Made by a program: the position numbers and the translations under genes. A DNA stretch of 64,000 bases from Clostridia bacterium (GTDB lineage: Bacteria > Bacillota > Clostridia > Acetivibrionales > STF1-152), in the NCBI GenBank assembly GCA_028280575.1, contig JANQLN010000010.1, positions 18,933-82,932 on the forward strand, in the 5' to 3' direction. Numbering within the stretch: the stretch's first letter is position 1; each line of letters begins with the position of its first letter. The notes under the pieces are model-generated. The model did not search any database. It was not told where the DNA came from and saw nothing but the letters and a program-made list of their open reading frames with translations. This document shows, piece by piece, positions 26,497-49,935 of the stretch.

Positions 26497-26517
26497 TTTT
26501 ACCCCTCCATCTTGACA

Positions 26518-26557
26518 GATTTTTTGTTCTAATCCTATAGCTTTAGAACAAAAAATC
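26518..26557. promoter_or_regulatory. Perfect 15-bp-arm inverted repeat in the 5' UTR of the GH2-like gene
   Basis: GATTTTTTGTTCTAA (26518..26532), a 10-nt spacer, then TTAGAACAAAAAATC (26543..26557), an exact reverse complement. It lies 22-61 nt upstream of the start codon at 26496 and downstream of the predicted promoter. Confidence 0.8.
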
Positions 26558-26645
26558 TCGGAACATAAACATTTCTTTGCTGCAATAATATTTGATAATT
26601 TCATATTAATATGTATGTCATTTTTTTAAAAGCCAAAATTTTTGT

Positions 26646-26674
26646 ATTATATGTTTAAAAAATTATACTTTCAA
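26646..26674 (-). promoter_or_regulatory. Putative sigma-A promoter of the GH2-like/ABC operon
   Basis: The minus strand reads TTGAAA (26674..26669), a 17-nt spacer, then TATAAT (26651..26646). This implies a 5' UTR of about 140 nt. Confidence 0.55.
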
Positions 26675-26783
26675 TGTATAGTTTTTGTGGTTAATGTACA
26701 AAAATTATGCTTTCGCTCGTCCTATGTGTCTCCTTCTGTGCATTTCCGACACGAATATAGTAAGTGCCAATAATTGCTGCAGG

Positions 26784-26808
26784 CAAAAAAAAAGAGGAAA
26801 GCTCCTCT
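26784..26808 (-). terminator. Intrinsic terminator after the membrane AraC regulator gene
   Basis: The minus strand reads AGAGGA gctt TCCTCT followed by T9 (the A-run at 26784..26792 on +). The stem overlaps the TAG stop at 26807..26809. Confidence 0.7.
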
Positions 26809-29131
26809 ATTTTTGACTGCATTCCCGATATTGTCCCGGTGTTATTCCTTCAAACATCTTAAAATATCGAATGAAACCATGTTCGTTATTATATCCTACC
26901 TTTTCGGAAATTTCCCGTATCGATAAATTCGAATCCGTCAGCATTGTTTTACTCTGTTCGATTCTAATGCGGTTAATATATTTGACAAGAGTAGTCCCTT
27001 CACAGTCTTTAAACATTCTGCTGACATAGGTCCGGCTCAAATCCACTTTAGCGGCAACCATATCCAGCGCAATATCTTGGCTGTAATTACTCTGAATATA
27101 TGCTTTGATTATTTCAATATATTTGTTTTTATGACAATTGTGCTTGTTATCTAAATACCCTATAATCTTTTTACAGATATCCAATACCCATGCTTTGATA
27201 TCATCAATGGTTTCATTCTTAGCAAACCTGGTATATATATTGGTTTTACTCCCTAATACTTCCTGCATGGTCCCGCCGTATTCCAAAACAATATTTACCG
27301 CCGAGCTCAACATTCTTTTAAATATCTGCAAAACACATTCTACAGATAAACCAGGTTTTTTCTTGATTTCCAATACCAGTTCTTCAATCAGTTTTTCCAA
27401 AAGTTCATACTCTCTGCTTTCCAGCAGGTTGATAAATATTTTTTCTTTTTTAACCGGATAATAATACAGCACTTCCGTATCCATTTTTCTAATATCCTGT
27501 ATATGAATAACGGTATTGTTGCCAACGAGCAACCGATACTTTAAAGCCCTCAGGGCTCCCAGATATGAGGTTGAAACATCCATAAGATCATGACATATAT
27601 TCCCTATCCCTATTGAAACACTCATGTCAAAATTCTCAAGCACCTGCTGCTTAAACTGCTGTGCAAGTGAGACAATATCGTTTTTGTGCATGTTCACCTT
27701 CATATTGCATAAGGCTGCAATATTTTGCTCCGTATCTATCACCGTAACTAAATTCATTTTATCGGCCAATATTTTTTCTTCCATTTGCCTAATTCTATTC
27801 AAAAATACTTGTCTTTTCCCTTTATCCAGCATGACATTCCCAAATTTATCATTACAGTCCATATCCATAACCATTACAAAAATGCCACTGCCTGTCAAGG
27901 TTATTTCCAGTTCATGTATCTGTTCCATTAAATAGACTCTTGAATCTATCCTGTTTCTCAGTAAATCATTGATGATTTTCTCTTCAATAAGAGTCTTGTT
28001 TTTGTTGTAAAATCCTTTTAATTTTTCCTCGCTGACAGTCACATCATCAAAGAGAGCTGTCAAATACTTGAATTCATCTAAAATTTTCTTCTTGCCGGCA
28101 AATATGCTGGCATTTGAATCCGCTTTATTGACTTTCGTTAAAAACTTTTCAATGGGATTATAGATTTTTCGGGATACGGGATAACTGATAATAATGGCTG
28201 CAATGCTCATCATTGCAATGATAATGACCGTACTGTCCCGGATATTATTTAATACTTTAAGTTCTTCTTTCAGATCGGTTACAGCTAAATATATCCGTCC
28301 ATTGGGTGAAGACCGGATAAAGGAAACAATATTTTTATTTTTTTCTCCGTCAAAAAAATATCCCTCTTTATCCTGTGCCACCTTTTGCATGAAATGCAAG
28401 GGCATATGCTGGTCTGTTACCGGTTGATTTGAAGAGATAATTGATCCGTTTTCATACAGCATGTAGAGCTGCGTTTGCCCATTCAACACAATTTCACTTA
28501 AGCTTTCCCACAATCTCTTTTCATCTAAAACAAAAATGATATATCCCTTGCTCTTTTTTCCAAGCAGAGGTACTTTTTGCAAATACACGATGTTTCCGCC
28601 CGTACTTTCCACAAAAATAGGCTCTTTAAAACTTGTCCGTGTTAACTTTTCACCAATTTCACCTGCATGCATCTTTTGCATCCAATGATAGTCAATCACT
28701 TTTTTATCCTTTTCAAAACCGTTTTTGACAGAAAATACACCACGATTGTTAAAGCTGTAAATATAAATATCTTTTATGGCATCTTCATTATAAACAATCC
28801 AGCTCATTTCTTCACTTAATTTGTATAAAGAATAAAAAATTTCGCTGTTCTCATTGATAAAACTCAAAGTGCTTTGGTTTTTCAATAAATTGATTGCCGT
28901 ATTTTCTACATTCTTAAAAGTCTGCTCATAGGTTTTATTAATCTGTCGCAGTACTTGTATATTATGCTTTGTGATTTCATGTTCAATGCTTTTGCCGGAT
29001 AAATTATAGGAAATATATCCAAGCAAAGTCATGAGTGCAATGATAATTAGAACAAAGGATACATAAAGTTTTACAAAAGTTTTGCCAAACGGGAAATTAA
29101 ACCGCAATATAACCACCCCAAAGAATAACAT
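26807..29131 (-). CDS. Membrane-anchored one-component AraC-family regulator (TM, extracytoplasmic sensor domain, TM, cytoplasmic linker, AraC HTH)
   Basis: 774 aa. Two hydrophobic helices (VSFVLIIIALMTLLGYISY and TVIIIAMMSIAAIIISYPV) bracket a domain of about 270 aa. The C-terminus is a classic AraC double HTH (...LDMVAAKVDLSRTYVSRMFKD...LSIREISEKVGYNNEHGFIRYFKMFEGITPGQYR). There is no receiver, HisKA or HATPase motif. The ATG at 29131 lacks an SD. The TTG at 29107 has GGGGTGG 5 nt upstream and may be the true start. Confidence 0.85.
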   Translation of the reverse strand: MLFFGVVILRFNFPFGKTFVKLYVSFVLIIIALMTLLGYISYNLSGKSIEHEITKHNIQVLRQINKTYEQTFKNVENTAINLLKNQSTLSFINENSEIFYSLYKLSEEMSWIVYNEDAIKDIYIYSFNNRGVFSVKNGFEKDKKVIDYHWMQKMHAGEIGEKLTRTSFKEPIFVESTGGNIVYLQKVPLLGKKSKGYIIFVLDEKRLWESLSEIVLNGQTQLYMLYENGSIISSNQPVTDQHMPLHFMQKVAQDKEGYFFDGEKNKNIVSFIRSSPNGRIYLAVTDLKEELKVLNNIRDSTVIIIAMMSIAAIIISYPVSRKIYNPIEKFLTKVNKADSNASIFAGKKKILDEFKYLTALFDDVTVSEEKLKGFYNKNKTLIEEKIINDLLRNRIDSRVYLMEQIHELEITLTGSGIFVMVMDMDCNDKFGNVMLDKGKRQVFLNRIRQMEEKILADKMNLVTVIDTEQNIAALCNMKVNMHKNDIVSLAQQFKQQVLENFDMSVSIGIGNICHDLMDVSTSYLGALRALKYRLLVGNNTVIHIQDIRKMDTEVLYYYPVKKEKIFINLLESREYELLEKLIEELVLEIKKKPGLSVECVLQIFKRMLSSAVNIVLEYGGTMQEVLGSKTNIYTRFAKNETIDDIKAWVLDICKKIIGYLDNKHNCHKNKYIEIIKAYIQSNYSQDIALDMVAAKVDLSRTYVSRMFKDCEGTTLVKYINRIRIEQSKTMLTDSNLSIREISEKVGYNNEHGFIRYFKMFEGITPGQYRECSQK

Positions 29132-29169
29132 AGATATGCAATAACCGATATTTTACTTTTCACTACTAA

Positions 29170-29199
29170 AGTTTACCACATTAGATAATTTTCTGTCAA
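29170..29199 (-). promoter_or_regulatory. Putative promoter of the membrane AraC regulator gene
   Basis: The minus strand reads TTGACA (29199..29194), an 18-nt spacer ending in TGG (the TG sits 2 nt upstream of the hexamer, not the canonical TGn), then TAAACT (29175..29170). Confidence 0.4.
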
Positions 29200-29269
29200 C
29201 TTAAACCTGTTTTGAGTTTCCCCATTTTTTAAAATAGGTATATATTTATGAGTACAATGAACCATCGGT

Positions 29270-29310
29270 AAAAAAAACAGCAGGGTTCATTGCTAAGATA
29301 GCCCTGCTGT
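29270..29310 (-). terminator. Intrinsic terminator after the 515-aa sulfatase gene
   Basis: ACAGCAGGG (29277..29285) pairs with CCCTGCTGT (29302..29310). On the minus strand the 9-bp GC-rich stem is followed by TTTTTTTT. Confidence 0.75.
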
Positions 29311-29323
29311 TTTTCATTTCCTA

Positions 29324-30871
29324 TTACCGCCCAAATCTTCCTTTGCGGCCGTAAAATGCAAAATGCATCTGTGGTGTGCCGTTTATAAGATTGCCGTCGC
29401 ATTCCTTGATCAGTTTCTGCCTTAGTTCATCTACCTTTTCCGGATACTTTTCCGCTACGTTTTTTTCCTCACGATAGTCTTCCCGGATATTAAAAAGCTG
29501 GTATTCCACCATCTCCTGCATATCGTCAAGGAACGCACCAAGACGCTCATATCGGTATTGCTCCATATCGATTACAGCCCTTATCTTCCAGCCGTCTCTG
29601 GTGACAAGCGCAGGTCCCATGTAGCTGGCATATACAACATATTCGTGAGCTTGAAGATTATGCCAGGCACCGGTCAAAAGAGGTGCAAAGGAAATACCGT
29701 CCTTGTTCTCAGGTATTTCTATCTCCAGCAGTTCTGCTAAGGTAGGCATAAGGTCATAATTAGCAACCATGTGGTCGGTTATCCTGCCCGGCTTTATTAT
29801 GCCCGGCCAGCGCATGATATATGGAATCCTCACTCCGCCTTCCCAACTGGTGAATTTCAGCCCTGCCATCCCGTCATTACCGTCAAACACATCTCCACAG
29901 GTATTGGAATAAAATTTGGTATTAATGTTATCTATTTTCTCTCCGCTGCTCGTCATTTCACGCAGGACTCTGCCTTCCTGTCGGTATTGCAGTGCGTGTC
30001 CATTGTCTGAGCTAAAAATGACCAGAGTATTTTCACTTAGGTTGAGCCTTTCAAGCTCGTCCAGGATCAGTCCCACCGTTTTATCCAGCCTCAATATCAT
30101 GGAGGCAAATTCCTTTTCAAGATCGTTGAGAACAGGATTATCTGCAACACCCGGATGGATCTCAGGGAAAAATATGGAGCCATGGGGAAGCTGTGACGGA
30201 TGATATAAGAAAAAGGGTTTGTCCCTATGTTCCCTTATGAATTCAATGATTTTTTCATCGAACAAATCCTGTGAGTATACCTTTCTGCCTGTCATGTCAA
30301 TTTGCTCGCCCTGTTCAAAGGCACTGCGTTTGGCTCCGCAGTTCACAAAGGTATTTCCTTCAATCTCAAATTTTTTTCCGTTTTTAAACAAAAAGGTGGG
30401 ATAATAGCCATGACATCTCAAATGATCATAATAACCATAATGGTAGTCCCAGCCATGGCGTTCTACTTCGTCTCCAGTGGTTGCAAAACCCCACTCAAGC
30501 TTGCCGATCTGTCCGGTTACATAGCCGGCTTTTTGAGCAATCTGAGGGAGAAAAACATCCTCGGATCCGTCCTGTATGCCTGTATTATGGATTAATTCAT
30601 ACACTTCTTCCATTGTCAGGGCTCCTTTATCAATTTCCTTATAAATACCAGCTTTTGTAAAAGTCCATCTTCCTGCATGTGCATCATGCAGCCCGCACAG
30701 TACACTGGCTCTTGCCGGTGCACAGAAGGCACATCCGTATGCTTGGTTGAACATTATCCCTTCCCCGGATAAACGATCAATATTCGGAGTCTGAAAATGT
30801 TTTTGCCCGTAGCAGCTAAGCATTCCTCTTCCAAGATCATCGGCATAGATATATATAATATTTGGTTTCAT
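29324..30871 (-). CDS. Sulfatase (formylglycine-dependent, Cys-type, arylsulfatase A-like), no signal peptide
   Basis: 515 aa with the segment PNIIYIYADDLGRG and the signature CAPARASVLCG (C-x-P-x-R). There is no hydrophobic leader. RBS AAGGAGG. Confidence 0.88.
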   Translation of the reverse strand: MKPNIIYIYADDLGRGMLSCYGQKHFQTPNIDRLSGEGIMFNQAYGCAFCAPARASVLCGLHDAHAGRWTFTKAGIYKEIDKGALTMEEVYELIHNTGIQDGSEDVFLPQIAQKAGYVTGQIGKLEWGFATTGDEVERHGWDYHYGYYDHLRCHGYYPTFLFKNGKKFEIEGNTFVNCGAKRSAFEQGEQIDMTGRKVYSQDLFDEKIIEFIREHRDKPFFLYHPSQLPHGSIFFPEIHPGVADNPVLNDLEKEFASMILRLDKTVGLILDELERLNLSENTLVIFSSDNGHALQYRQEGRVLREMTSSGEKIDNINTKFYSNTCGDVFDGNDGMAGLKFTSWEGGVRIPYIMRWPGIIKPGRITDHMVANYDLMPTLAELLEIEIPENKDGISFAPLLTGAWHNLQAHEYVVYASYMGPALVTRDGWKIRAVIDMEQYRYERLGAFLDDMQEMVEYQLFNIREDYREEKNVAEKYPEKVDELRQKLIKECDGNLINGTPQMHFAFYGRKGRFGR

Positions 30872-31190
30872 ATTTATAACCTCCTTTTCCGGAATACAAA
30901 CGGAACTTTTGTGTCAGGAGCGTTTATATTCTCAACGCAGTAGTGCGAAAAAATATGCGATAAGATGACCATCAATTTTATGTGTTACATACCACTAGTA
31001 TAAACTATGAAAGTAATATCGCCAAGTCCTAACTTCTCCAATTCATTCCATATCCTTCACAAATTGTTGTCAAGACTCCAGCAAAAAAACTTTCAAAGCT
31101 GAGTTTTAAACCAATTAGCTAGGAAATCAGGATGACACCCAGCTGTTGATTTAATACATTTAAAATAAAATTTTTCGCTGTAGTATAATA

Positions 31191-31937
31191 TTATTTAAGA
31201 ATAATAATTTTCTTAAGGGGTGCATAAACCAAAAGTGCAATAATCATGCCTGTTGTAAACTGTAATATATTAAACGGTATATTAACTACAGGGACCACAT
31301 AGCTTCCGTAAATCACATATTCAGCGATATAGTAACCTATTGCCATCCACAGGCCTGCAGCAATAATACCCATAATAAATGTCAAATTTATATTATGTCC
31401 TTTCCTGTACATATAAGCACCCAGTCCGGCCGCAATTACAACAACCAGTAATGTTGATACCAGCAAAACCGTCTGTACGTAATTGTTAAGGCTTATAAGC
31501 TCCGGTACGCTGTTTACCGTCTCAATTTCATCTACCAGTTGAGGCGATATGGTATCTACAGCTTTATTTAATAAAGATTTTGCAGTAATTACAAATACCG
31601 TCCAAATTGCTATTACTGATGAGGAAAAATATATTTTGCTTTTTTTCTTTTTAAGAGAAAATGCTATTCCCACCAATACGGCCATCAATACTTTTATTAT
31701 AAGCGTAAACGGTGCCCACTGCATATATCCTCCCATTATATCTGCAAGCATGGAACCCAGGCCGGCCGCTGCGGCACCATACTTCCATCCAAGCAGAATT
31801 GCCGACAGGAAAACCATACAGTCTCCCAGGTGAACATACCCCCCGCTCACAATGGGCATTGGTAATTTAAGCGATGTGGCAGCTGTGACCAATGCTACCA
31901 TAATACCTGTATATGCCACCCTTCTTACATTCACCAT
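31191..31937 (-). CDS. ECF-transporter substrate-specific (S) component-like membrane protein, substrate unknown
   Basis: 248 aa and all-helical, with an N-terminal pattern typical of ECF S components (RRVAYTGIMVALVTAATSL...GGYVHLGDCMVFLSAILLGWKYGAAAAGLGSMLADIMGG). An extra hydrophobic insert of about 70 aa sits mid-protein. There are no ECF A/T genes in the window. RBS GGGGAGGGAG. Confidence 0.65.
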   Translation of the reverse strand: MVNVRRVAYTGIMVALVTAATSLKLPMPIVSGGYVHLGDCMVFLSAILLGWKYGAAAAGLGSMLADIMGGYMQWAPFTLIIKVLMAVLVGIAFSLKKKKSKIYFSSSVIAIWTVFVITAKSLLNKAVDTISPQLVDEIETVNSVPELISLNNYVQTVLLVSTLLVVVIAAGLGAYMYRKGHNINLTFIMGIIAAGLWMAIGYYIAEYVIYGSYVVPVVNIPFNILQFTTGMIIALLVYAPLKKIIILK

Positions 31938-32042
31938 ATTTTCTCCCTCCCCTATATTGATTTTGTTTCTATTATATTGTACTATAACATTAAACTGTAC
32001 ATTAAAAAAGTGTCAGTTTTATAAATTTATAAGGGGTCAGTT

Positions 32043-33401
32043 ATGCTGGAATTAATATTGAACTTCAAAAGTAGTAAAGTGAAGCCTAAATATGTAAGGC
32101 TTTACAAATATATAAGGGATGAAATTGAATCAAAAAGAATAGGGCCTAATGAAAAAATCCCTTCAATCAGGCTGGTTGCAAAGCAGCTTGGCATAAGCAG
32201 GACAACGGTGGAAAATGCATACTACCAGTTAACACTTGAGGGCTATATTTACAGCCGCAGCAAAAGTGGTTATTATGCTTGTGACATAGGAACAATACCG
32301 TCAAACAAAAATATGGATATAAAAACGGTAAATGAGGATTTTCAGGTATTTGATAAAAACACCGGAGAATATTTGGATGAGGGCTGTTTTAGCTTTGCTG
32401 CATGGAAAAAAAGCTACAACAGGGTGTTATTATACCAGAGCAAAAAACTTATTCAGCACGGCAGCCCCCAGGGTGAAATTGAGCTGAGACAGGAATTGTC
32501 AAAATATGTATACAGATCCCGGGGAGTAAAATGCACCTTTGACCAGATAATTATAGGTGCGGGAGTACAAGTATTATTAGGCATATTGTGTACCCTGCTT
32601 AAAACGCTGAACATATCCGGAATAGCTTTTGAAGACCCTGGCTTTACCGATGTCTGGCATGTATTTGAAGATTACGGCTTCAATCTCTTGCCTGTAAGTG
32701 TATCTGAAAGAGGGTTAAACGTAAAGGAGCTGGCAGAAAGCAGTGCTCAAATATGCTACGTAAGCCCGTCTCATCAATTCCCCACCGGTACTATAATGCC
32801 TGTGGGAAACAGGCTGGACCTTCTTAAATGGTCAAAAGACAATAATTCATATATAATTGAGGACGATTATGACAGTGAGCTAAGGTATTCGGGTAATCCT
32901 ATACCAAGTCTGCAAAGCCTTGACATGTATGGCAGAGTCGTATATCTTGGTTCATTTTCAACAGTATTTTTACCATCTGTCAGGATCAGTTATATGATAC
33001 TGCCCGGCATTTTGCTCAAGCAATATAAAAAATTTGGCATAAGATATAATCAGACCTCCTCAAAAATCGAACAATTGACATTGGCAAGCTATATTAATGA
33101 AGGTGAATTTGAAAGACATTTAAGGCGTATCCGCAAAAAATTTGCAGTCAAGTATGCCCTGTTGAAAAATTCAATTGAAAAACTGTGCGCACAAAGGATC
33201 AAAATACTTCCTTCAGATTCAGGTACAAATATGATTATGCTGTTAAAAGATACAAAAAATGTGTCTGCCGCAGCCAAAAGCATGTGCTCCAAAGGTCTTA
33301 CAGTTAAACATATAAGCGACAGCATGCTGCTTTTGAAATTTACAACTATTCCGGAAAAAAAAATTGCTGCAGCCGCTCAAATCATAAACGGTTGTATTTA
33401 A
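32043..33401 (+). CDS. MocR/GabR-subfamily GntR regulator (wHTH + fold-type-I aminotransferase-like domain) lacking the PLP lysine
   Basis: 452 aa with the GntR HTH KIPSIRLVAKQLGISRTTVENAYYQL and an AAT-like domain (IEDDYDSELRY...). The motif expected to read SFSK-x-L-x-P-x-x-R-I-S/G-Y reads GSFSTVFLPSVRISY, with Thr307 (codon ACA at 32961..32963) where the Schiff-base Lys sits in GabR as I recall it. Confidence 0.85.
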   Translation: MLELILNFKSSKVKPKYVRLYKYIRDEIESKRIGPNEKIPSIRLVAKQLGISRTTVENAYYQLTLEGYIYSRSKSGYYACDIGTIPSNKNMDIKTVNEDFQVFDKNTGEYLDEGCFSFAAWKKSYNRVLLYQSKKLIQHGSPQGEIELRQELSKYVYRSRGVKCTFDQIIIGAGVQVLLGILCTLLKTLNISGIAFEDPGFTDVWHVFEDYGFNLLPVSVSERGLNVKELAESSAQICYVSPSHQFPTGTIMPVGNRLDLLKWSKDNNSYIIEDDYDSELRYSGNPIPSLQSLDMYGRVVYLGSFSTVFLPSVRISYMILPGILLKQYKKFGIRYNQTSSKIEQLTLASYINEGEFERHLRRIRKKFAVKYALLKNSIEKLCAQRIKILPSDSGTNMIMLLKDTKNVSAAAKSMCSKGLTVKHISDSMLLLKFTTIPEKKIAAAAQIINGCI

Positions 33402-34495: not shown

Positions 34496-34681
34496 TACAC
34501 AGTCTCCTCTACATGTAAGTTGAATTAAATTTATAATATAATACCACAAAAAAATGAACAATTTGTTAACTTTAAAGCATACAGCAGCATACCCGCTGTA
34601 AAAGAGATGTTTAAAGACTTTGTTACTGCGGATTGTTAGTTATACGTTTTTTTAAAACAGGGAAACTCAAAAAAAATGCTA

Positions 34682-34710
34682 TTGATTTTTGTACTTTTAC
34701 ATGTTATAGT
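34682..34710 (+). promoter_or_regulatory. Putative sigma-A promoter of the purK-purE-permease operon
   Basis: TTGATT (34682..34687), a 17-nt spacer, then TATAGT (34705..34710). It lies about 205 nt upstream of purK. Confidence 0.55.
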
Positions 34711-34716
34711 AGCTGT

Positions 34717-34802
34717 GTAAGTATCGAGTGTTAATTGATTTGACAAATCAGGATGTATAGAGTTGGAAGACCGGGCGGAAGGTTAAAAACCAGGCGCAGT
34801 GT
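34717..34802 (+). promoter_or_regulatory. Structured 5' leader (candidate riboswitch aptamer or attenuator sensor), class not recognised
   Basis: It lies between the predicted promoter and a strong terminator, with no upstream + strand gene to terminate. Small hairpins: TGATT-tgaca-AATCA (34737..34751), and GCG-gaa-GGTT-aaa-AACC-agg-CGC (34775..34797). The G-rich block GACCGGGCGGAAGG is at 34769..34782. Confidence 0.5.
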
Positions 34803-34859
34803 AATCCAATATCCCGTTGGCTTATAAAAAGCCGGCGGGATATTGGATTTTTTTATTTT
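34803..34859 (+). terminator. Leader (attenuator) terminator upstream of purK
   Basis: AATCCAATATCCCGTTGGC (34803..34821) pairs with GCCGGCGGGATATTGGATT (34831..34849), giving 19 bp including 2 G-U pairs and a 9-nt loop. It is followed by TTTTTATTTT. It sits 55 nt before the purK start. Confidence 0.8.
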
Positions 34860-34914
34860 GAATGATTATTGTGTTTAGGAAAAACGGCGAAGTTTCAAAG
34901 GGGAAAAAAGAGCA

Positions 34915-36090
34915 GTGAAAATGACAGGGGAAAAATATAAAGTATTGCAGCCTCCTGCAAGAATTGGAATTATAGGGGGGGGACAGCTTGGCAAGATGAT
35001 AACGGTTGAAGCCAAACGAATGGGCTATCATGTAACAGTACTTGACCCCACCCCGTCCTCTCCTGCCGCACAGGTCGCCGACAAGCAGATAACCGCTTCA
35101 TTTATGGACAAAAGTGCAACTAAAAAGCTTGCCGGGGCTTGTGATGTCATAACCTATGAATTCGAGCATATTGATGCAGATATTTTAATTGAGCTGGAGA
35201 AGGAAGGATACAATATACTTCCATCAGGCAAATCCTTAAAAACCATACAGGATAAATATGTCCAGAAAACCATGCTTAAAAAGGCGGGGATTTTGGTACC
35301 GGATTATATCCTTGTAAAGGATATGCAGGATATGTCAAAGTGTATTGATACCCTAGGCTTGCCATTTATACTAAAGACCCGCTGGGGAGGATATGACGGA
35401 AAAGGTAATTGTGTTGTAAAATCCGAAGAGCAGATGGATAAGGTGATGGAAAAATTTGCAGGACATAGCTTGATGGCAGAGAGATTTATTAAATTTGAAC
35501 GTGAGCTGTCCATTATTGCTGCACGGAATTTAAAAAATGATTATGCCTTTTATCCTGTAGTTGAAAATATACATGAAAACAGCATACTTCGCTTAAACAG
35601 GGCACCGTCAGACATAAATAGCCCAGTTGAAAAAAAGGTGCGAAAGATTGCGGAAAAGGTAATAGAAATTCTTGACGACTATGGTGTATTCTGTATAGAA
35701 ATGTTCCTTACTCCAAATGAAGAGGTTTATGTTAATGAAATAGCCCCCCGGCCGCATAATTCAGGGCATTATACAATTGAAGGCTGTGCCGCTTCACAAT
35801 TTGAGCAGCTGGTAAGGGTGATTACGGGAATGCCTTTAGGTTCTACAGAGCTTCGCAGCCCTTGTGTTATGGTTAATATACTCGGAAATGATACCGTTGA
35901 AGGGGAACATAGATTTGAGGGGATTGAAAATGTTATTGGTGAAGATGGTATATATCTTCATTTGTACGGTAAGAAAAACACAAAGAAATTGAAAAAAATC
36001 GGACATATAACTGCTTTAGATAAATCCATTAAAGCTGCTGAGGAAAAAGCGCTGAGATCATTAAAAAATATTGTAATTAAACCATTGTAA
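34915..36090 (+). CDS. purK: N5-carboxyaminoimidazole ribonucleotide synthase
   Basis: 391 aa with an ATP-grasp pattern: RIGIIGGGQLGKM...ITYEFEHID...LPFILKTRWGGYDGKGN...FERELSIIAAR...NEIAPRPHNSGH. The track start is a GTG at 34915. An ATG at 34921 is also possible. Confidence 0.93.
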   Translation: MKMTGEKYKVLQPPARIGIIGGGQLGKMITVEAKRMGYHVTVLDPTPSSPAAQVADKQITASFMDKSATKKLAGACDVITYEFEHIDADILIELEKEGYNILPSGKSLKTIQDKYVQKTMLKKAGILVPDYILVKDMQDMSKCIDTLGLPFILKTRWGGYDGKGNCVVKSEEQMDKVMEKFAGHSLMAERFIKFERELSIIAARNLKNDYAFYPVVENIHENSILRLNRAPSDINSPVEKKVRKIAEKVIEILDDYGVFCIEMFLTPNEEVYVNEIAPRPHNSGHYTIEGCAASQFEQLVRVITGMPLGSTELRSPCVMVNILGNDTVEGEHRFEGIENVIGEDGIYLHLYGKKNTKKLKKIGHITALDKSIKAAEEKALRSLKNIVIKPL

Positions 36091-36102: not shown

Positions 36103-36537
36103 ATGCCCGAATTAAAGGTGGGAATAATTATGGGAAGCGATTCGGACCTGCATGTGATGAACAAGGTTGCCGGGATACTTAAAGAACTGGGTATTGAATT
36201 TGAAATGAATATAGTATCGGCCCACAGGACACCTGAGAATATGTACAATTATGCCAAGACAGCAGAGCAAAGGGGTATCGCTGTCATAATAGCAGGAGCC
36301 GGAGGCTCTGCCCATCTTCCCGGAATGGTTGCATCTTTGACATGCATTCCGGTTATAGGCGTACCCATCAAATCAAAAAGTTTAGACGGGATGGATTCCC
36401 TTCTTTCAATAGTGCAAATGCCTGCCGGCGTTCCTGTGGCAACAGTTCCAGTCGACGGAGGTGCTGTAGCCGGCAGGCTTGCTGCCAGGATGCTTGGAGT
36501 AGGCGATATGAAAATAAGGCAAAAACTGGCTACATAA
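36103..36537 (+). CDS. purE: N5-CAIR mutase (class I PurE)
   Basis: 144 aa with [14 protein letters not shown]...VSAHRTPE...[17 protein letters not shown]...PVIGVP. It is paired with purK, which implies class I. Confidence 0.93.
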
Positions 36538-36592: not shown

Positions 36593-37975
36593 TTGAGTAA
36601 AAGTAATCCACGCCAGGAACTGTTAAATAAAGACTTACTTTCATATAATCCAAGACAATGGCGGATTAATATGCCTTTTAAGGACTACAATCTGAGACTT
36701 GAAGACATTGTTCCTGCACTATCGGGCACCATAGGCAAAATTTCCCTGGTTGCTGCATTTGTTATGGCGTGGTCTTCAGGTTTTAATATAACAGATCCTT
36801 CATTCGTAACTGAAAATGTAAGGCTTGAAATTGTTTTTGCCAGCATCGTCACAATATTATTCTGTGCTGTTCTGAATCCGTATGCAGGCCCCCCCGGAAC
36901 TCTTGCCCCCTTAATTCCGTTAGTTCCGGTGATGGTATCGTCAGGAGTGCATCCATTGCCTTTAAGCATTCTTATTGGATTTATAGGACTTATAATATCT
37001 TCCTTTAAATACTTTACTAAAGTGGTAAAAATTAATGGTACGGGAACAAAAGGAGGAATTATTCTTTTATTTGGTTTTCTCGGAATAAGCAGTTCTTTCG
37101 AAAACTTAAGAAATTGGACTGACAATAGTGAAAAATCCGGGCTGTTTATTCTGCTTTTATTAGTGGGCCTTGTTTTGTATATTTTACTCAATAAATTCAA
37201 AGCAAGGTGGATGATAATACCCGCATGCGCTGTAGCTTCCATAGCTATAGCTTCATTCTTCAGCTTATACCCCACATTAGAAACCGGCATAGGCCTCCCA
37301 ATAATAAACCCTAATGTTTGGTGGAATGAAAAATGGGGTATAGGCTGGGGATTAAATATTCAAAATTTTATTAAAGCATTTCCCTTTGCACTGCTTGCAG
37401 TTGTTATGTGGCCGATAGATGCACTGGCGATTAAGACAATACAGGAAGCAAACTATCCTGAGAAAGCTAAAAAAGCCATTTTTTATATGAATCCTACATA
37501 TATTATCGTATCTATAAGGAACATTGTAGGTGCATTGCTTGGCGGTGCTCAAATATCGGCAATATGGAGAAGCTTTATGATTCCTCTGGGGATAGTGAAA
37601 AGACCTATAGCAGCAAGTGCTTTAATATTAGGGTTACTTGGAATATGCTTCGGCATTTCCGGATTTTTAATAGATATTGCGGTTTTTCCTCCTTTATTAT
37701 GGCTGGTTTTGATATTTGGTGTATATATACCCCTTATAGAAGTCGGATTAAACACCATAAAAAGTGTTGCATCGGCTCAAATAGCCGCAATCTGCATCAT
37801 TACAGGTATTGCGGTAAATCCGGTACTGGGATGGATTGCTTCTGTCTTTGTTGAAAACTTTAAAATAATCAAGGATTCCGACAGTGATATAAATCAATCC
37901 ACAAAGGACCGTTATATAACGGTAGGCTTGATAACCATAACTATCGTCACGTTTTTATCAACATATACTTTGTAG
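36593..37975 (+). CDS. Polytopic membrane protein, probable transporter of unknown family and substrate
   Basis: 460 aa with about 11-12 hydrophobic segments. The TTG start at 36593 has GGAGG 7 nt upstream. It lies 55 nt after purE with no intervening terminator. I recognise no diagnostic family motif. Confidence 0.7.
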   Translation: MSKSNPRQELLNKDLLSYNPRQWRINMPFKDYNLRLEDIVPALSGTIGKISLVAAFVMAWSSGFNITDPSFVTENVRLEIVFASIVTILFCAVLNPYAGPPGTLAPLIPLVPVMVSSGVHPLPLSILIGFIGLIISSFKYFTKVVKINGTGTKGGIILLFGFLGISSSFENLRNWTDNSEKSGLFILLLLVGLVLYILLNKFKARWMIIPACAVASIAIASFFSLYPTLETGIGLPIINPNVWWNEKWGIGWGLNIQNFIKAFPFALLAVVMWPIDALAIKTIQEANYPEKAKKAIFYMNPTYIIVSIRNIVGALLGGAQISAIWRSFMIPLGIVKRPIAASALILGLLGICFGISGFLIDIAVFPPLLWLVLIFGVYIPLIEVGLNTIKSVASAQIAAICIITGIAVNPVLGWIASVFVENFKIIKDSDSDINQSTKDRYITVGLITITIVTFLSTYTL

Positions 37976-38010: not shown

Positions 38011-38106
38011 TTAGAGGGAGTAACGGTCTGTCTTTATGGCAGGAATAAAGTCGTCATTACGGCATAAAAGCCCGGCTTTATTGCATTAATGTTCGTGAGA
38101 CTCTAC
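38011..38106 (+). promoter_or_regulatory. yybP-ykoY (Mn2+) riboswitch aptamer
   Basis: The sequence is TTAGAGGGAGTAACGGTCTGTCTTTATGGCAGGAATAAAGTCGTCATTACGGCATAAAAGCCCGGCTTTATTGCATTAATGTTCGTGAGACTCTAC. It contains the conserved blocks I associate with this family (GGGAGUA, AAAGUCGUCA, CCGGCUUU-UUG, AGAC) in the right order. The 5' AGAG and 3' CUCU close P1. It lies directly upstream of a P-type ATPase, a known genomic context for this class. Confidence 0.8.
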
Positions 38107-38145
38107 ACTTAAACTGCTTTTGGTTTGGGTGTAGAGTATTTTTAT
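38101..38145 (+). terminator. Riboswitch expression-platform terminator
   Basis: CTCTACACTTAAAC (38101..38114) pairs with GTTTGGGTGTAGAG (38123..38136), giving 14 bp including 2 G-U pairs and an 8-nt loop, then TATTTTTAT. The 5' arm shares CUCU with the 3' strand of aptamer P1, so the two structures are mutually exclusive (ON-switch logic). Confidence 0.75.
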
Positions 38146-40828: not shown

Positions 40829-42637
40829 TTATTTAATGATGGGGAGAATCAGTTCAACGTTCGTGCCTACTCCATAAGTACTGTAAAGCCTGACGCCGTA
40901 TTTTTCACCAAAGGATATACGAATACGTTCGTTGACGTTTACAAGAGCAATGCTCCCCTTATCCCTTTGCTCGTCATTATCAAAGGTATATTTGATTTTG
41001 CTGGAAAGACTGCAGTTGATTCTCTCCAATTGATCACACTTGATTCCCACACCATTGTCTTCAATGTTGATAACCATTCTCTTATCTGTTGTGCAAATAT
41101 TTATATTGATAGTACCTTCACCGGGCTTGCTTTCAAGCCCATGAATTACAGCATTTTCCACCAAAGGCTGTATTAGTAGCTTTAGCAGCTTAAAGTCCAT
41201 TATTTTTGGATCATTATCAATAATATCAATTACCAGTTTAAACCTATTGCCAAAACGAAATTCCTGGATCATCATATAATTTTCAACATTTTTAAGCTCC
41301 TCTTTTAAAGTTACAAAATTGTCCGCATTGCTTATGCTGTAACGGAAAACGGAAGATAATATCTTAGCCATATTAGCGCTTTTAACTGCCCCCTCACACA
41401 AAGCCTGCCCTCTTATAGAATCAATTGTATTATAGAGGAAATGCGGGTTGATCTGGGTTTGGAGAGCGTTGAGCTCAGCACGTTTTTTTAGTATTTTAGT
41501 GTAGTATTCATTGTTTATCAGATTCCTTATGGTCAAAGCTATATTGTTCAAGTCAGAGGCTAAAGGATAAAATCGTTTATTCTGGCTAATGCCTATGTTG
41601 AAATCAAAGTCACCTGAAACCATACTGTGTATAGCTTTATCAATTTTAGTAACAGGGGAATATATACTGAAAACAAATAACAATAGAATTACCAGAGTTA
41701 TTAAAATGAGTGCGATGGTTAAATTAAAGAAATTTTTAAATAAATAGCTAAAGTGCATGTCTATATATTGACTTTTAAAAATACCCATCAAAACAAAATC
41801 GTATTTATCTGAGGCACAATGAAAAACATAGTTGGAAGCAGAAGTTATTTTGCCTTGGCCTTTGACTGGAAAATAATTGCCATTGCTGTTTTGGTACTGC
41901 TTGAAAAATTGAATTGTATCAATATAAATTTCCGGTTTATTATTCTTATAATAAAGTACTTGGCCTCTGCCATTAAACAATATCGGATTCCCATTATTAA
42001 TTATGGAGTTTGCATATATTATCCTGCTGAGGAAGGATATATCCAATTCCAGTACAATTATAAAGTACCGGTCCAAATATCTATACACTCTGGATAATTG
42101 TAAGCAAGTAGAATTTTTATATTTTAACGTGCCCAAATATACTTTATCCCGAATCCCGTTTTCAAAGTCCTTCCCCAACTGTGAATTAACCGGATACTCA
42201 GGAGCAGAATAATTGTCATTGATGCAATGTTTTGCTATCGGCATACCATCTGGTCCATACACAGAAATTGCATATAAGTTATTATTATACTTCAAAACAT
42301 TTTTAATCTCACGGATAATCGATGAGTTATCATTAAGCGGAAATTGTGAAGAGTAATAAGAGCGAAAATCCATAGCCAGCGCGTCCGAAATTTTTATAAG
42401 TGAATCAAATAAAAAATCAAATGTAGAGACTGTATCTTTCAGCGAGCCGCTAACAGATGCAATATTGGTATCAACCTGGTAATCCGTGGCATTCTTGTGA
42501 ATGGTGTAGCCATAATAGTAAATACTTAAAACAAGAATACTCAGTATTAGAACAATGGTTAATATCAAACTAACCTTAATACCAAAAAATCTTTTGAATT
42601 GAGTTAAAAATTTTATCTTTTCTACACTATTTCTCAT
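40829..42637 (-). CDS. Sensor histidine kinase, YesM/LytS-like (TM, extracytoplasmic domain, TM, HAMP, His_kinase, HATPase)
   Basis: 602 aa with two TM helices, a HAMP-like segment (PVTKIDKAIHSMVSGDFDF), the phospho-His box QINPHFLYNTIDSI, and the HATPase motifs LVENAVIHG and IEDNGVGI. The start overlaps the response-regulator stop by 4 nt. Confidence 0.92.
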   Translation of the reverse strand: MRNSVEKIKFLTQFKRFFGIKVSLILTIVLILSILVLSIYYYGYTIHKNATDYQVDTNIASVSGSLKDTVSTFDFLFDSLIKISDALAMDFRSYYSSQFPLNDNSSIIREIKNVLKYNNNLYAISVYGPDGMPIAKHCINDNYSAPEYPVNSQLGKDFENGIRDKVYLGTLKYKNSTCLQLSRVYRYLDRYFIIVLELDISFLSRIIYANSIINNGNPILFNGRGQVLYYKNNKPEIYIDTIQFFKQYQNSNGNYFPVKGQGKITSASNYVFHCASDKYDFVLMGIFKSQYIDMHFSYLFKNFFNLTIALILITLVILLLFVFSIYSPVTKIDKAIHSMVSGDFDFNIGISQNKRFYPLASDLNNIALTIRNLINNEYYTKILKKRAELNALQTQINPHFLYNTIDSIRGQALCEGAVKSANMAKILSSVFRYSISNADNFVTLKEELKNVENYMMIQEFRFGNRFKLVIDIIDNDPKIMDFKLLKLLIQPLVENAVIHGLESKPGEGTININICTTDKRMVINIEDNGVGIKCDQLERINCSLSSKIKYTFDNDEQRDKGSIALVNVNERIRISFGEKYGVRLYSTYGVGTNVELILPIIK

Positions 42638-44250
42638 ATTCCATTCTTAGATTTCAGATGCACCTTTCTATAATGTCCGGGATTCAAACCTATATATTTT
42701 TTAAAAAGCTTGCTGAAGTATTTTACATCCTTATATCCAACCATTTCAGCTACATTGTATATCCTGTAGCGTATATCCATAAGCAAATTTTTAGCAACTT
42801 CCATACGATAGTTTGCCAGGTAATCTGTAAAATTTGTGCCGGTATTTTTTTTGAATAATACACTGAAATAAGTGGGATTTAAAAATACATGATCTGCAAT
42901 ATCCGTCAGCTTGATATTTTTTGAGTAATTCTTGCTGATATACATTTTAGCTATTGCTATTACGCCCGGATTGTTAATATTCATTTCATCGCAGTATTTC
43001 TCTAATATATCACATATGAAATCGGATACATGTACTATCATTTGATTCAGTGATTTACAGTTATCAATTTCAAAATAGATTTGTTCTTTTGGCATAAAAT
43101 TCTTTTCTACTGAATAACCCATTCTGCCCATGCTTTTATAGAAAAGCTCGACAATCTGATATAAAAGCTTAAATAATATACAAGGATTTGAATTATTATC
43201 TGCAAACTGTTCAACGGTGTTTCTAATCCAACTACAAATTTCATCTGATTTGAATGCTTCAACCAATGCAATGAACTCCCGTTCCTTTTCAACTGTAATT
43301 AACTCAAATGTATAAGTACCATAAAAATAAAGCTTTGATATGTCTAAAACACGGTCGGTTCCTATAAAAATTCTGCATTTTAAGGAATCAAGCGCACTAT
43401 TATATGATCTGTAAAGTGAGTATATATTTGTTTCTTTGCTCCCAATACCTACGGTGACGTGAATGGGCAGCTTGTATTTGGCAGTTAGTATTCTGGTAAG
43501 TGCATCTTTAACGCCTTTGTCAACATGCTCTTTATTAACTGTAGGGTAATTAAGTATACAAACCAGGCTGTCGTTTTGAATTATGGAGAAAAAACTAAAG
43601 CAGCTTACTTTTATTGCATCTGAAATTATTGAAGCATAATAGTCAAAATCCGAAGACTTTATATTAATATTATCACTCTCAAATTTATATATAACTACGT
43701 CAAAAATACCTACCTCAAAAGCCATGCTATACTTTTCATTAATCTCAGTTATGGTCATATCGCTGTCAGCAGTATGTGTCAATAAGCTGAGAATAAAAGA
43801 TTCCTGAAGCTGTGCTAAATTGCTTAATGCTTCACAGCGCAAACTTTCAAGCTTATTGCAAGTTTGCATTTTACTATCAATGGAAAATTTTATTTTTTTG
43901 AGAGCATCATAAAGCTCATTTTCATCAATGGGTTTAAGTAAATAACCTTCTACACCAAGTTTCAACGCAGTTTGTGCATATTTGAAATAGTCATATCCGC
44001 TGATTATAATAAAATGGGTATTCAAAGCAGCAAGACGCACACGTTCTATAAGAGAAATGCCGTCTATAATAGGCATTTTTATATCAACGATTACTATATC
44101 CGGGTTTAAAGAGGTAATCATTTGATAAGTCTGATACCCGTCTTTTGCCGTACCAGCTACTTTCATATCAAGCTTTTCCCATGGAACAGATTTTTTAATT
44201 AATTCACAAATCCAGATTTCATCATCGGCAATCAATACCTTAATCATCAT
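42634..44250 (-). CDS. Response regulator with AraC-type output (YesN-like)
   Basis: 538 aa with the receiver domain MMIKVLIADDE...PDIVIVDIKMP...IIISGY, a long middle region, and a C-terminal AraC double HTH (LTDIADHVFLNPTYFSVLFKK...YNVAEMVGYKDVKYFSKLFKKYIGLNPGHYR). Confidence 0.92.
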   Translation of the reverse strand: MMIKVLIADDEIWICELIKKSVPWEKLDMKVAGTAKDGYQTYQMITSLNPDIVIVDIKMPIIDGISLIERVRLAALNTHFIIISGYDYFKYAQTALKLGVEGYLLKPIDENELYDALKKIKFSIDSKMQTCNKLESLRCEALSNLAQLQESFILSLLTHTADSDMTITEINEKYSMAFEVGIFDVVIYKFESDNINIKSSDFDYYASIISDAIKVSCFSFFSIIQNDSLVCILNYPTVNKEHVDKGVKDALTRILTAKYKLPIHVTVGIGSKETNIYSLYRSYNSALDSLKCRIFIGTDRVLDISKLYFYGTYTFELITVEKEREFIALVEAFKSDEICSWIRNTVEQFADNNSNPCILFKLLYQIVELFYKSMGRMGYSVEKNFMPKEQIYFEIDNCKSLNQMIVHVSDFICDILEKYCDEMNINNPGVIAIAKMYISKNYSKNIKLTDIADHVFLNPTYFSVLFKKNTGTNFTDYLANYRMEVAKNLLMDIRYRIYNVAEMVGYKDVKYFSKLFKKYIGLNPGHYRKVHLKSKNGI

Positions 44251-44273
44251 AGCATCCCCATAACTGACATTTA

Positions 44274-45005
44274 TTAATTTACAATTATTTTAAGTAATTT
44301 TTCAATTGAATAATCACTTCTTGCAACAGTCCTAATTGTTTTTCCATCTCTAATAATTGTAGTTCTGTCTGTAAAATCGATAATGTTATCAATTCTGTTG
44401 GTAATATAAATTACGGATACTGCCTTATATTTCAAATGCCTGATCATTCTTTTAAAAATAACTATCTCAGTGTCGCTGAATAACGGCATCAAGTCATCGA
44501 ATATAATCAGCTTAGCATTTGAAATGTATGCACTGATAACTGAAACCATACACTTTTCAATGTGAGAAAGCTCATTCACCTGTCTGCTTGGCTCTATTAT
44601 ATTGACTCCTAGAATATCAAAACACTGTCTTGTCAAATCATATATTTCACCTTTTTTATACCTCCATCCAAACCTCAATTTGGAATTGACAAATATATTC
44701 TCAATAACATTGAGATTAGGGAAAAGGCTAAAGTTTTCATAAATGCAAAATATGCCCTTTTGTTTTGCCTCTAAAGGAGTAAGATTATTTACTTCTTCAT
44801 CTTCATAGTATATTTTGCCGCTGCTCTTTTTTTTCAAGCCTGACAGAAGTTTCAACAAAGTTATGCGACCTGCTCCAAATTCACCGAGAATACCTAGTAT
44901 TTCACCTTTATAGACATTAAGATTAATATCGCTTAAAACTTTGCGGCCATATTGTTTGTTTGTTACATGATCCAGCCTGATTATTTCAACCATGTTATCA
45001 CACAT
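44274..45005 (-). CDS. Half-size ABC nucleotide-binding-domain paralog with degenerate catalytic motifs (predicted non-catalytic)
   Basis: 243 aa and colinear with NBD1 of the neighbouring CUT2 ATPase (45260..46813), but the motifs differ. Walker A is GEFGAGRIT (neighbour GENGAGKTT). The Q-loop is CIYEN (IVHQE). The signature is LSHIEKC (LSTAQKQ). Walker B is LIIFDDLM (VLILDEPT). The H-loop is ITNRI (ISHKL). It is the first gene of the operon with the YesN/YesM pair, 23 nt upstream of the RR start. The start is uncertain (ATG at 45005 or 44993, weak SD). Confidence 0.8.
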   Translation of the reverse strand: MCDNMVEIIRLDHVTNKQYGRKVLSDINLNVYKGEILGILGEFGAGRITLLKLLSGLKKKSSGKIYYEDEEVNNLTPLEAKQKGIFCIYENFSLFPNLNVIENIFVNSKLRFGWRYKKGEIYDLTRQCFDILGVNIIEPSRQVNELSHIEKCMVSVISAYISNAKLIIFDDLMPLFSDTEIVIFKRMIRHLKYKAVSVIYITNRIDNIIDFTDRTTIIRDGKTIRTVARSDYSIEKLLKIIVN

Positions 45006-45126
45006 CCATAAAGCACTTTTTTGGAACTGTAGACAAGTTATATAATTATTATACCTTTAAAAAGATATCTTGTAAATACGAAAATAAAACCCAAAGAATA
45101 TTACACCTTATATAAAAATCATCTAC

Positions 45127-45155
45127 TTGTTGAAGTAATTTGAGGGTATTATAAT
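45127..45155 (+). promoter_or_regulatory. Putative sigma-A promoter of the CUT2 ABC operon
   Basis: TTGTTG (45127..45132), a 17-nt spacer, then TATAAT (45150..45155), about 105 nt upstream of the ATG at 45260. Confidence 0.5.
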
Positions 45156-45259
45156 AAAAAAACAAAGGCAAAACAAGTAAGGCCTTTCATCTTTACAAGT
45201 ATAAAATAAATAAATCTAGCAGTAAAAATATATACTAAAGAAAATTTGGAAGTGATTAC

Positions 45260-47811: not shown

Positions 47812-47860
47812 TTTTAAATAATTTAACAAATACCAAATCTTAAAAGAGGAGAGAATTAAC

Positions 47861-49903: not shown

Positions 49904-49935
49904 GCAGTAACTAATTAAATTGTGGGGTGAACATA

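Follow-up and report, generated by a model that had tools for sequence, protein, structure and literature searches.

Several described systems bear comparison with the leader that is the subject of this study. ON-type riboswitches that answer pathway intermediates are established for purine genes, in which 5-aminoimidazole-4-carboxamide ribonucleoside triphosphate (ZTP) and phosphoribosyl pyrophosphate (PRPP) serve as signals. Protein-operated antiterminators, such as those encoded by hutP, by bglG/licT with their ribonucleic antiterminator (RAT) targets and by pyrR, typically have the gene of the regulator just outside the controlled segment, a layout that is unusual for riboswitches. Growth at low CO2 depends on PurK, carbonic anhydrase, phosphoenolpyruvate (PEP) carboxylase and MpsAB/Dab-type uptake; to our knowledge, the sensing of CO2 or bicarbonate in non-photosynthetic bacteria is largely unknown. 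MpsC, which gave its family (PF10057, formerly DUF2294) its name, is encoded with a bicarbonate/CO2-concentrating transporter, and we know of no role for it, regulatory or other. Here, we describe a leader in a stretch of 64,000 nucleotides (nt) from a Clostridia bacterium (contig JANQLN010000010.1), hereafter the window, in which all coordinates without a locus number are counted. The leader precedes a purK-purE-DUF3360 operon on the + strand and contains a conserved RNA element (34760–34813) that probably acts as a new on/off switch of bicarbonate- or CO2-using genes. We give roughly an even chance to the idea that it belongs to a class of cis-acting antiterminator RNAs not described before and operates by MpsC-dependent antitermination; whether the element is operated by MpsC or is itself a riboswitch, it would represent a new RNA class.

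Relatives of the PurK of the window (63–76% identity) were placed on public contigs, of which those with a named source include Petroclostridium and Pseudobacteroides and the rest are metagenome-assembled genomes; a scan of genome contigs with PurK as the query yielded two distant loci only, neither of them relevant. In the regions upstream of these relatives, a block with a terminator at its end can be aligned with the window. An nhmmer profile built from three leaders and run on the same loci found the block repeated within loci, before purK and before a pair of genes for a 160-aa protein and DUF4914, at times in tandem. One scan of a metagenome collection with a degenerate pattern returned 45 stretches, approximately 18 of which proved to be genuine copies, flanked in the same way and equipped with a terminator. 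A total of 28 distinct copies could be aligned almost without gaps (alignment A2, later enlarged as A7), and a covariance model (R1) built from relatives gave 36 matches (35 distinct sequences) in 26 sources, with scores of 42–77 bits, some of them copies outside the selection made by the search pattern. The sole match of this model in the 64-kb window is the element at 34760–34813 (+ strand; 66.9 bits, E ~1e-16). The element is conserved in many anaerobic Firmicutes.

The core of the element (approximately 47 nt, 34763–34809) folds as an irregular hairpin, in which highly conserved internal loops separate four short helices. The consensus of the 28 copies, UUGGAAGAC-C-NNN-NCG-AAG-GGUU-(loop of 3-7)-AACC-AGU-CGN-AGUGUAAG-CCAAUAU, contains four nested helices, namely P1 (UUGG/CCAA), P1a (AC/GU), P2 (3 bp) and P3 (GGUU/AACC), and RNAalifold, run independently, predicted the same four. 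In the window, all on the + strand, the P1 5′-strand UUGGA (34763–34767) pairs with 34805–34809 (34763–66 with 34806–09, together with A34767-U34805), and the energy model extends P1 by G34762-U34810. The P1a 5′-strand AC (34770–34771) pairs with G34801-U34802, and P2 (34775–77/34795–97) and P3 (GGUU 34781–84 with AACC 34788–91, loop 34785–87) form a hairpin at 34775–34797. The 3′-strands of P1a (34801–02) and P1 (34805–09) lie in a segment, 34801–34809, that reads as the switching sequence. Approximately 25 near-invariant unpaired nucleotides occupy the internal loops around the short helices, and neither a pseudoknot nor a junction was detected in the element.

The pairing is supported by counts over alignment A2, in which 95.3% of the pairs are standard and the covariation score is 0.231, compared with 0.125 ± 0.011 for shuffled alignments, none of which (0/500) reached the observed value; slid control registers all gave far lower scores, and the enlarged alignment gave the same pairing and covariation statistics (94–95% of cells paired). 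Changes on both sides occur at all three pairs of P2 (the middle pair is, e.g., CG, UA, AU or GC). In P1a, pairing is maintained in 100% of cells, and four sequences, which represent at least two lineages, have U-A in place of C-G. The P1 pairing UUGG/CCAA is invariant in sequence and paired in 96–97% of cells, and P3 is nearly invariant and 98–99% paired. The element is therefore a conserved and structured domain that is supported by covariation (in P2 and P1a), as is expected of a riboswitch aptamer.

The element begins downstream of a sigma-70-type promoter (34682–34710, + strand) that consists of a -35 box TTGATT (34682–87), a 17-nt spacer and an extended -10 box TGtTATAGT (34702–10); a consensus scan scored 9/12 matches, with TG in front of TATAGT (34705–10). 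Promoter-like matches in the AT-rich stretch occur at the level of chance (16 observed, 14.1 expected), but the hexamers and the spacing of this site recur without a single change in the homologous L007/L008 leader. Transcription would start near 34717. The first part of the leader (34717–34759, + strand), which includes a small hairpin at 34737–34751, is not conserved beyond L007 (alignments A1 and A5). The element runs into an intrinsic terminator (34803–34856, + strand), a 20–21-bp stem-loop at 34803–34849 followed by the U-tract TTTTTTT at 34850–34856; 20 pairs, 9 of them G-C, were counted in the stem, which in isolation folds at -33 kcal/mol, and the G+C-rich stem-loop with an immediate U-tract is that of a Rho-independent terminator. 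The 159-nt leader as a whole folds with z = -5.5 relative to shuffled sequences. The closest upstream gene on the + strand stops at 33401 and two open reading frames (ORFs) on the - strand intervene before the leader, and thus there is nothing upstream for the hairpin at 34803–34856 to terminate. The preliminary description of this DNA, made from the letters of the window, had pointed to the same promoter, to a strong terminator between it and purK and to the lack of an upstream gene, all of which are borne out; its view of the terminator as conditional is sensible, as the terminator is part of a conserved structured element.

The terminator and the element share nucleotides. Positions 34803–34809, which belong to the P1 side of the element, are also the first 7 nt of the terminator 5′-arm, and the terminator 3′-arm repeats at 34843–34847 the UUGGA of the P1 5′-strand. 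An expression platform that shares nucleotides with the aptamer is characteristic of riboswitches, and an RNA target that overlaps a terminator is characteristic of protein-dependent antitermination; the segment 34803–34809 provides both. The minimum-energy fold of the nascent RNA 34760–34828 is exactly the comparative structure, including P1 (-15.1 kcal/mol). For the RNA 34760–34860, the terminator state is at -42.2 kcal/mol and the state with the element helices enforced is at -36.8 kcal/mol, a gap of 5.4 kcal/mol; with the element enforced, a leftover 13-bp hairpin remains that stops 8 nt short of the U-tract. A few kcal/mol of stabilisation of the element would therefore block completion of the terminator, and the modelled energies thus suggest a switch of ON polarity. 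Nearly every copy of the element is followed by a terminator, the 5′-arm of which starts with the conserved GCCAAUAU or UCCAAUAU and is otherwise variable in its stem. Terminator stems normally drift in sequence, and the segment GUAAKCCAAUAU is kept in nearly all copies.

These comparisons also revise the pairings suggested earlier. Two small hairpins had been noticed in the leader; the one at 34775–34797 corresponds to P2 and P3 of the conserved element, whereas the one at 34737–34751 is not conserved. The two antiterminator contacts then considered, CGGG with CCCG (34813–16) and GGATGT (34751–56) with ATATCC (34809–14), involve columns that vary freely among relatives and were not retained. 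The actual competitor of the terminator appears instead to be the pairing of UUGGA (34763–67) with UCCAA (34805–09).

No known RNA class accounts for the element. A search of the whole window with Rfam 15 (4227 models) gave no match at the gathering score, and 34600–34960 searched at E≤10 gave only microRNA-like hairpin noise on the terminator, as did a permissive search of tandem copies (L003, 700–1120), in which microRNA and hairpin noise lay far below threshold. The purine (guanine/adenine) riboswitch RF00167, a three-way junction with conserved nucleotides in J1/2, J2/3, J3/1 and the loop-loop contact, was unmatched both at the gathering score and at E≤10, and no match was found to the ZTP (pfl) riboswitch RF01750, which has pseudoknotted sub-domains and conserved GGGUCGUGA- and CCGCCUGGG-type blocks, to the ykkC family RF00442 and its relatives (guanidine-I, PRPP, ppGpp), which combine two coaxial helical stacks and the conserved ykkC core, or to the T-box, HMP-PP/thiS and NMT1/xanthine models. 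The preliminary description had found no signature of the purine-pathway classes by eye and left the leader to be judged by Rfam and by conservation and covariation among relatives; Rfam assigns it to no family, the purine-pathway classes are indeed absent, and the leader recurs (36 copies, 26 sources) with covarying P2 and P1a. Full-text literature, covered without subscription-only papers, yielded nothing on DUF2294, DUF3360 or DUF4914, on a riboswitch for bicarbonate, CO2 or 5-aminoimidazole ribonucleotide (AIR), or on a purK riboswitch candidate, and a 2024 survey of noncoding RNAs in 50 genomes lists no purK or purE motif. The element thus appears to belong to an uncatalogued RNA class that works as a terminator/antiterminator leader, and a prior description of it is possible.

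Most copies are immediately preceded, on the same strand, by the 3′-end of an mpsC gene, which encodes a protein of approximately 120 aa. By tblastn, 21 of 24 distinct loci contain mpsC, in most cases in the orientation of the element, with its end 2–130 nt before the first copy. When three MpsC proteins were chosen independently of the RNA (from Thermoanaerobacteraceae, Tepidanaerobacteraceae and one further genome), the element started 0–5 nt past the stop codon in all of them (67.9, 67.6 and 43.7 bits) and was followed by DUF4914 or pyruvate:ferredoxin oxidoreductase (POR) genes. In L066, an MpsC of 54% identity is followed at the same place by a diverged element (19.2 bits), then by a terminator and a major facilitator superfamily (MFS) gene, so that all four MpsC-anchored look-ups have an element after the stop codon. 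At L066:561-640 the terminator overlaps the diverged element by approximately 3 nt only, and this element may represent a second subclass. A regulator gene linked to its target, as in protein-dependent antitermination, is thus present at most loci and at every protein-anchored one, but not in the 64 kb of the window. Within the linked MpsC subfamily, identity is 78% or higher (mostly at least 82%) under source labels that range from Oscillospiraceae to Thermoanaerobacteraceae and Tepidanaerobacteraceae, whereas PurK among the listed relatives is 52–76% identical; the subfamily falls into one or two clusters at 50% identity and accounts for approximately 1000 90%-identity clusters in public data. 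Loci with two elements (L006, L007, L010, L021 and L063) retain one intact mpsC. At L010:3255-3323, an mpsC pseudogene (65% identity over residues 89–111, with an in-frame stop) directly precedes a purK-type element, and the intact mpsC lies 2 kb downstream of it. The region 34700–34755 of the window was considered as a relic of an mpsC 3′-end and rejected, as the resemblance is at the nucleotide level only (GATTTGACAAAT) and tblastn gave no protein-level signal; alignment A5 matches this region instead to the promoter and leader of L007.

The element is always in sense orientation, 50–300 nt before a recurring set of genes, and no consistently recognisable promoter lies between it and these genes. 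The first genes after distinct copies include purK-purE-DUF3360 and purK-purE-MFS, and one copy heads purK, an archaeal-type PEP carboxylase (PF14010, E 6e-128) and purE. In L003, the 160-aa protein and DUF4914 are followed by purK-purE-DUF3360, biotin carboxylase and an amidohydrolase; in L014, they are followed by a carbonic-anhydrase-like protein (a weak match to PF00484, E 7e-4, below the cut-off), purK-purE, DUF6671, a protein resembling phosphoglycerate kinase (PGK) and DUF3360. Other copies precede MFS transporters alone, DUF6671, DUF3360-DUF4914 or a 2-oxoacid:ferredoxin oxidoreductase (POR). The purine-pathway framing of the preliminary description is too narrow, as the element also precedes DUF4914, MFS, PEP carboxylase and POR genes. 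From their annotations, PurK, PEP carboxylase, biotin carboxylase, POR and the carbonic-anhydrase-like protein would share the use or movement of bicarbonate/CO2.

DUF3360 may belong to the same theme. Its AlphaFold2 (AF2) model, with a predicted local distance difference test score (pLDDT) of 90, has an elevator fold of 7+7 transmembrane helices, and the best Foldseek match is the NAT transporter 7tak (E 4e-10, TM score 0.64), followed by SLC26A3 (one entry of which is bicarbonate-bound), SLC26Dg, UraA, UapA and Band 3. DUF3360 is therefore predicted to be an elevator-type transporter of the NAT/SLC26/SLC4 fold, a fold that leaves its substrate undecided. Sequence searches of the PDB gave nothing usable for DUF4914 or DUF3360. 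MpsC, the 160-aa protein, DUF4914, purK, purE and DUF3360 recur together (L003:383-8170; L014:1-8164; L060:5001-7555), in some loci with biotin carboxylase and amidohydrolase, the carbonic-anhydrase-like protein, DUF6671, the PGK-like protein or asparaginase II, and this neighbourhood looks like an uncharacterised carboxylation or inorganic-carbon pathway. The 160-aa protein has no Pfam match. DUF4914 (approximately 625 aa) carries a P-loop, GASGGGKSE, which is reminiscent of those of HPr kinase and PEPCK; a Pfam scan extended to weak hits gave no cross-family match, and the resemblance stays a lead. In L049 (- strand), ORFs that resemble purA, carA and carB by eye lie 3.7–6.5 kb past the element, after purK, PEP carboxylase and purE and behind a 300-nt gap; carbamoyl-phosphate synthase uses bicarbonate. 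Of mpsC, DUF4914, the 160-aa protein, biotin carboxylase, DUF6671, the carbonic-anhydrase-like protein and PGK, none was found when the window was searched.

A feasible model of the switch is as follows. Transcription would begin near 34717, and the emerging RNA 34762–34810 would fold as the irregular hairpin P1/P1a/P2/P3. If P1 is not clamped, the terminator 3′-arm would displace UUGGA (34763–67), the full 20-bp stem would form at the U-tract and transcription would stop before purK. A clamped hairpin would leave the terminator with no more than its upper 13 bp, 8 nt away from the U-tract, and the polymerase would enter purK-purE-DUF3360. MpsC/DUF2294, a small protein, is the most likely clamp and would bind RNA as an antiterminator in response to a signal; because no mpsC is encoded in the window, it would have to be provided in trans in this genome. 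The signal may be the supply of inorganic carbon (bicarbonate/CO2), as suggested by the genes under control, and the output of the operon would be, when needed, ATP-driven carboxylation of AIR together with an anion or nucleobase-type transporter. Both the binding of MpsC and the nature of the signal are inferred from gene association.

The MpsC-dependent mechanism is ranked first because a regulator-like gene lies just outside the controlled segment, is unusually conserved and diverges in step with the RNA; as the element travels with the MpsC/DUF2294 gene, a protein-operated attenuator is at least as likely as a riboswitch. Several observations weigh against this mechanism. The loci without mpsC are the window (none in 64 kb) and the short contigs L025 and L052, and the copies in the window, in L007a and of the DUF4914 type have an apparent promoter of their own, so that the element need not be co-transcribed with mpsC. 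No RNA-binding domain is recognised in MpsC, PF10057 being its only family match, and the protein lies outside the known families of RNA-binding antiterminators (CAT-PRD, HutP, PyrR, ANTAR and TRAP); its AF2 model (pLDDT 92), in which a helix-strand-strand unit occurs twice before a final helix, has no significant neighbour in the PDB by Foldseek (best E 0.04, to Bet3/YslB folds that resemble small-molecule-binding proteins), and a sequence search of the PDB found no relative. P1 and P3 show no compensatory changes, so that the key competing helix relies on pairing potential and conservation alone. Finally, genuine riboswitches, too, typically have a compact core of high conservation and occur as tandem copies. 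A serious but less likely possibility is that the 47-nt element is such a stand-alone riboswitch of a new class, which would bind a small molecule or ion directly, lock P1 and turn the operon ON, with bicarbonate or a metabolite that piles up under limited carboxylation (e.g., AIR) as candidate ligands and with MpsC as merely another inorganic-carbon gene often in the operon. The loop-rich invariant core around short covarying helices and the classic overlap of P1 with the terminator would suit this function, a single metabolite as the signal fits a coherent regulon of bicarbonate users, the fold of MpsC is not known for RNA binding, and the window element is intact, high-scoring and served by its own conserved promoter although no MpsC is present within 64 kb. 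By contrast, the upstream mpsC is near-obligatory and always outside the controlled part of the transcript, which is the signature of a regulator gene; the core nucleotides of L066 shift along with a 54%-identical MpsC, whereas riboswitch cores are normally fixed across such distances; and it is hard to see the architecture of a pocket in a single irregular hairpin. With respect to the signal itself, we regard it as unlikely that the 47-nt RNA binds bicarbonate (or a CO2 adduct) and thereby switches on a “carboxylation kit” of PurK/PurE, PEP carboxylase, biotin carboxylase and transporters in anaerobic Firmicutes. Rated above this is the tentative proposal, to which we give somewhat less than an even chance, that MpsC/DUF2294 is the first of a new family of antiterminators which bind RNA and sense CO2 or bicarbonate.

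The element might also be unregulated, i.e., the 3′-end and terminator of mpsC, a stabilising 3′-untranslated region or an independent small RNA, left over in the window, with downstream genes that rely on other promoters. This is very unlikely. It would explain why the element begins a few nt past the mpsC stop codon at many loci, why it stayed in L010 when mpsC decayed and why the promoter and terminator of the window would yield a transcript of approximately 140 nt; but a plain terminator needs no conserved, covarying structure of 45 nt upstream, a full-score element is kept where mpsC is absent and there has a conserved promoter firing into it, the constant sense orientation before recurring genes without a consistent intervening promoter is left without a reason, and tandem copies would be pointless if the element were a 3′-end. 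Ribosome-mediated attenuation was rejected as hardly credible. A 24-codon ORF (MYRVGRPGGRLKTRRSVIQYPVGL) does run across the window element, from the ATG at 34753 to the TAA at 34827 within the terminator loop; the ATG and the ORF are not conserved in relatives, P3 loops of 3–7 nt occur in different copies, so that no reading frame is kept, the changes in P2 are compensatory at the RNA level, and runs of regulatory codons are absent.

Tandem copies occur in L003, L014, L028 and L034, most of them with a terminator of their own. The second copy of L034 (L034:276-330) has none (the downstream sequence folds at -7.9 kcal/mol) and a 168-aa ORF starts approximately 100 nt after it; this copy possibly has a translational instead of a transcriptional platform. 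In L003, a degenerate third copy of which only the 3′-half remains (L003:986-1018) follows two full tandem copies. In L057 (1-116), a second, inverted copy at the contig end shares one terminator hairpin with the normal copy; this arrangement is most probably not biological but a palindromic artefact of the assembly.

Taken as a regulon, the genes downstream of the element form a compact and widespread set of bicarbonate-using enzymes, three transporter families and large proteins of unknown function (DUF4914, DUF6671 and the 160-aa protein), for which the element, either as RNA alone or as RNA with MpsC, is a directly testable candidate sensor. If MpsC acts as proposed, this would be the first function for DUF2294/MpsC and would explain the third gene of the mpsABC carbon-concentrating operon; DUF3360 and DUF4914 become candidate proteins of inorganic-carbon transport and carboxylation. 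If the RNA itself were to bind bicarbonate, it would be without precedent as an RNA sensor of inorganic carbon. In either case, the element adds an RNA class that was missed by the usual riboswitch catalogues.

In the window, the operon downstream of the element comprises three genes on the + strand. The purK gene (34915–36090), for the bicarbonate- and ATP-dependent N5-carboxyaminoimidazole ribonucleotide (N5-CAIR) synthetase (NCBIfam equivalog NF004679, 431 bits; TIGR01161, 424 bits), starts at GTG 34915 or ATG 34921, 55–65 nt from the U-tract. An exact database look-up of the 391-aa PurK gave no match, because the database protein (P0001, 100% identical from the ATG) begins two codons later. 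It is followed by purE (36103–36537), an N5-CAIR mutase by best family match (TIGR01162, 202 bits; PF00731), and by the gene of the DUF3360 membrane protein, or “permease” (36593–37975; PF11840, E 3e-109), and a terminator-like hairpin found by scan (38100–38137, + strand, 17-pair stem) closes the operon. Further upstream, 31191–33401 contains an energy-coupling factor (ECF) transporter S component (PF07155) divergent from a MocR/PdxR-type regulator (NF052282, 437 bits), probably a vitamin B6-related transporter/regulator pair. The regions 22357–31000 and 40829–50000 encode a 1415-aa protein of glycoside hydrolase family 2 (GH2), a sulfatase, AraC-type two-component regulators and GHL6/GH42-like enzymes, which suggests a polysaccharide-degrading organism of the Clostridia type.

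Finally, the element can be set against the systems that it most resembles. The ON-type riboswitches of purine genes (ZTP/pfl, PRPP/ykkC subtype 2b and adenine) likewise occupy purine-gene leaders and let P1 compete with a terminator, and activation when a precursor or substrate signals need is an expectation shared here; by contrast, the element is a single irregular hairpin without a match to them at E≤10, its regulon extends far beyond purine genes and it is genetically coupled to a protein gene. The fluoride riboswitch (crcB motif) is similar in its size of approximately 50 nt, its very short helices, its conserved core and its ON-type control of a terminator, and would be the precedent for a small RNA that senses a small anion, were bicarbonate the direct ligand; however, it relies on a pseudoknot, none of which is evident in the element, and the two are dissimilar in sequence and fold. 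The MpsABC/DabAB systems of inorganic-carbon uptake (S. aureus; ybc of B. subtilis) share the connection to bicarbonate/CO2 with the regulon described here, whereas the element loci have neither mpsA nor mpsB. The HutP/hut and PyrR/pyr systems of Bacillus resemble the mpsC loci in the order of regulator gene, target RNA with terminator and structural genes, and in a small, highly conserved protein whose action would involve a small-molecule signal; the targets are spaced UAG triplets for HutP and a specific stem-loop for PyrR, and neither these proteins nor their RNAs are related to MpsC or the element. The RAT targets of BglG, LicT and SacY differ in that MpsC belongs to PF10057 and not to the CAT-PRD proteins, its binding to RNA being putative, and in that the element has neither the RAT sequence nor an Rfam match nor a link to the phosphotransferase system. 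In both cases, however, a short irregular hairpin overlaps with its 3′-part the 5′-arm of a terminator, and in L006 and L007 mpsC lies behind the first target, as in the bgl operon of E. coli. In the RAT systems, the binding of a protein encoded next to its target prevents termination, and it is this function that is proposed for MpsC.

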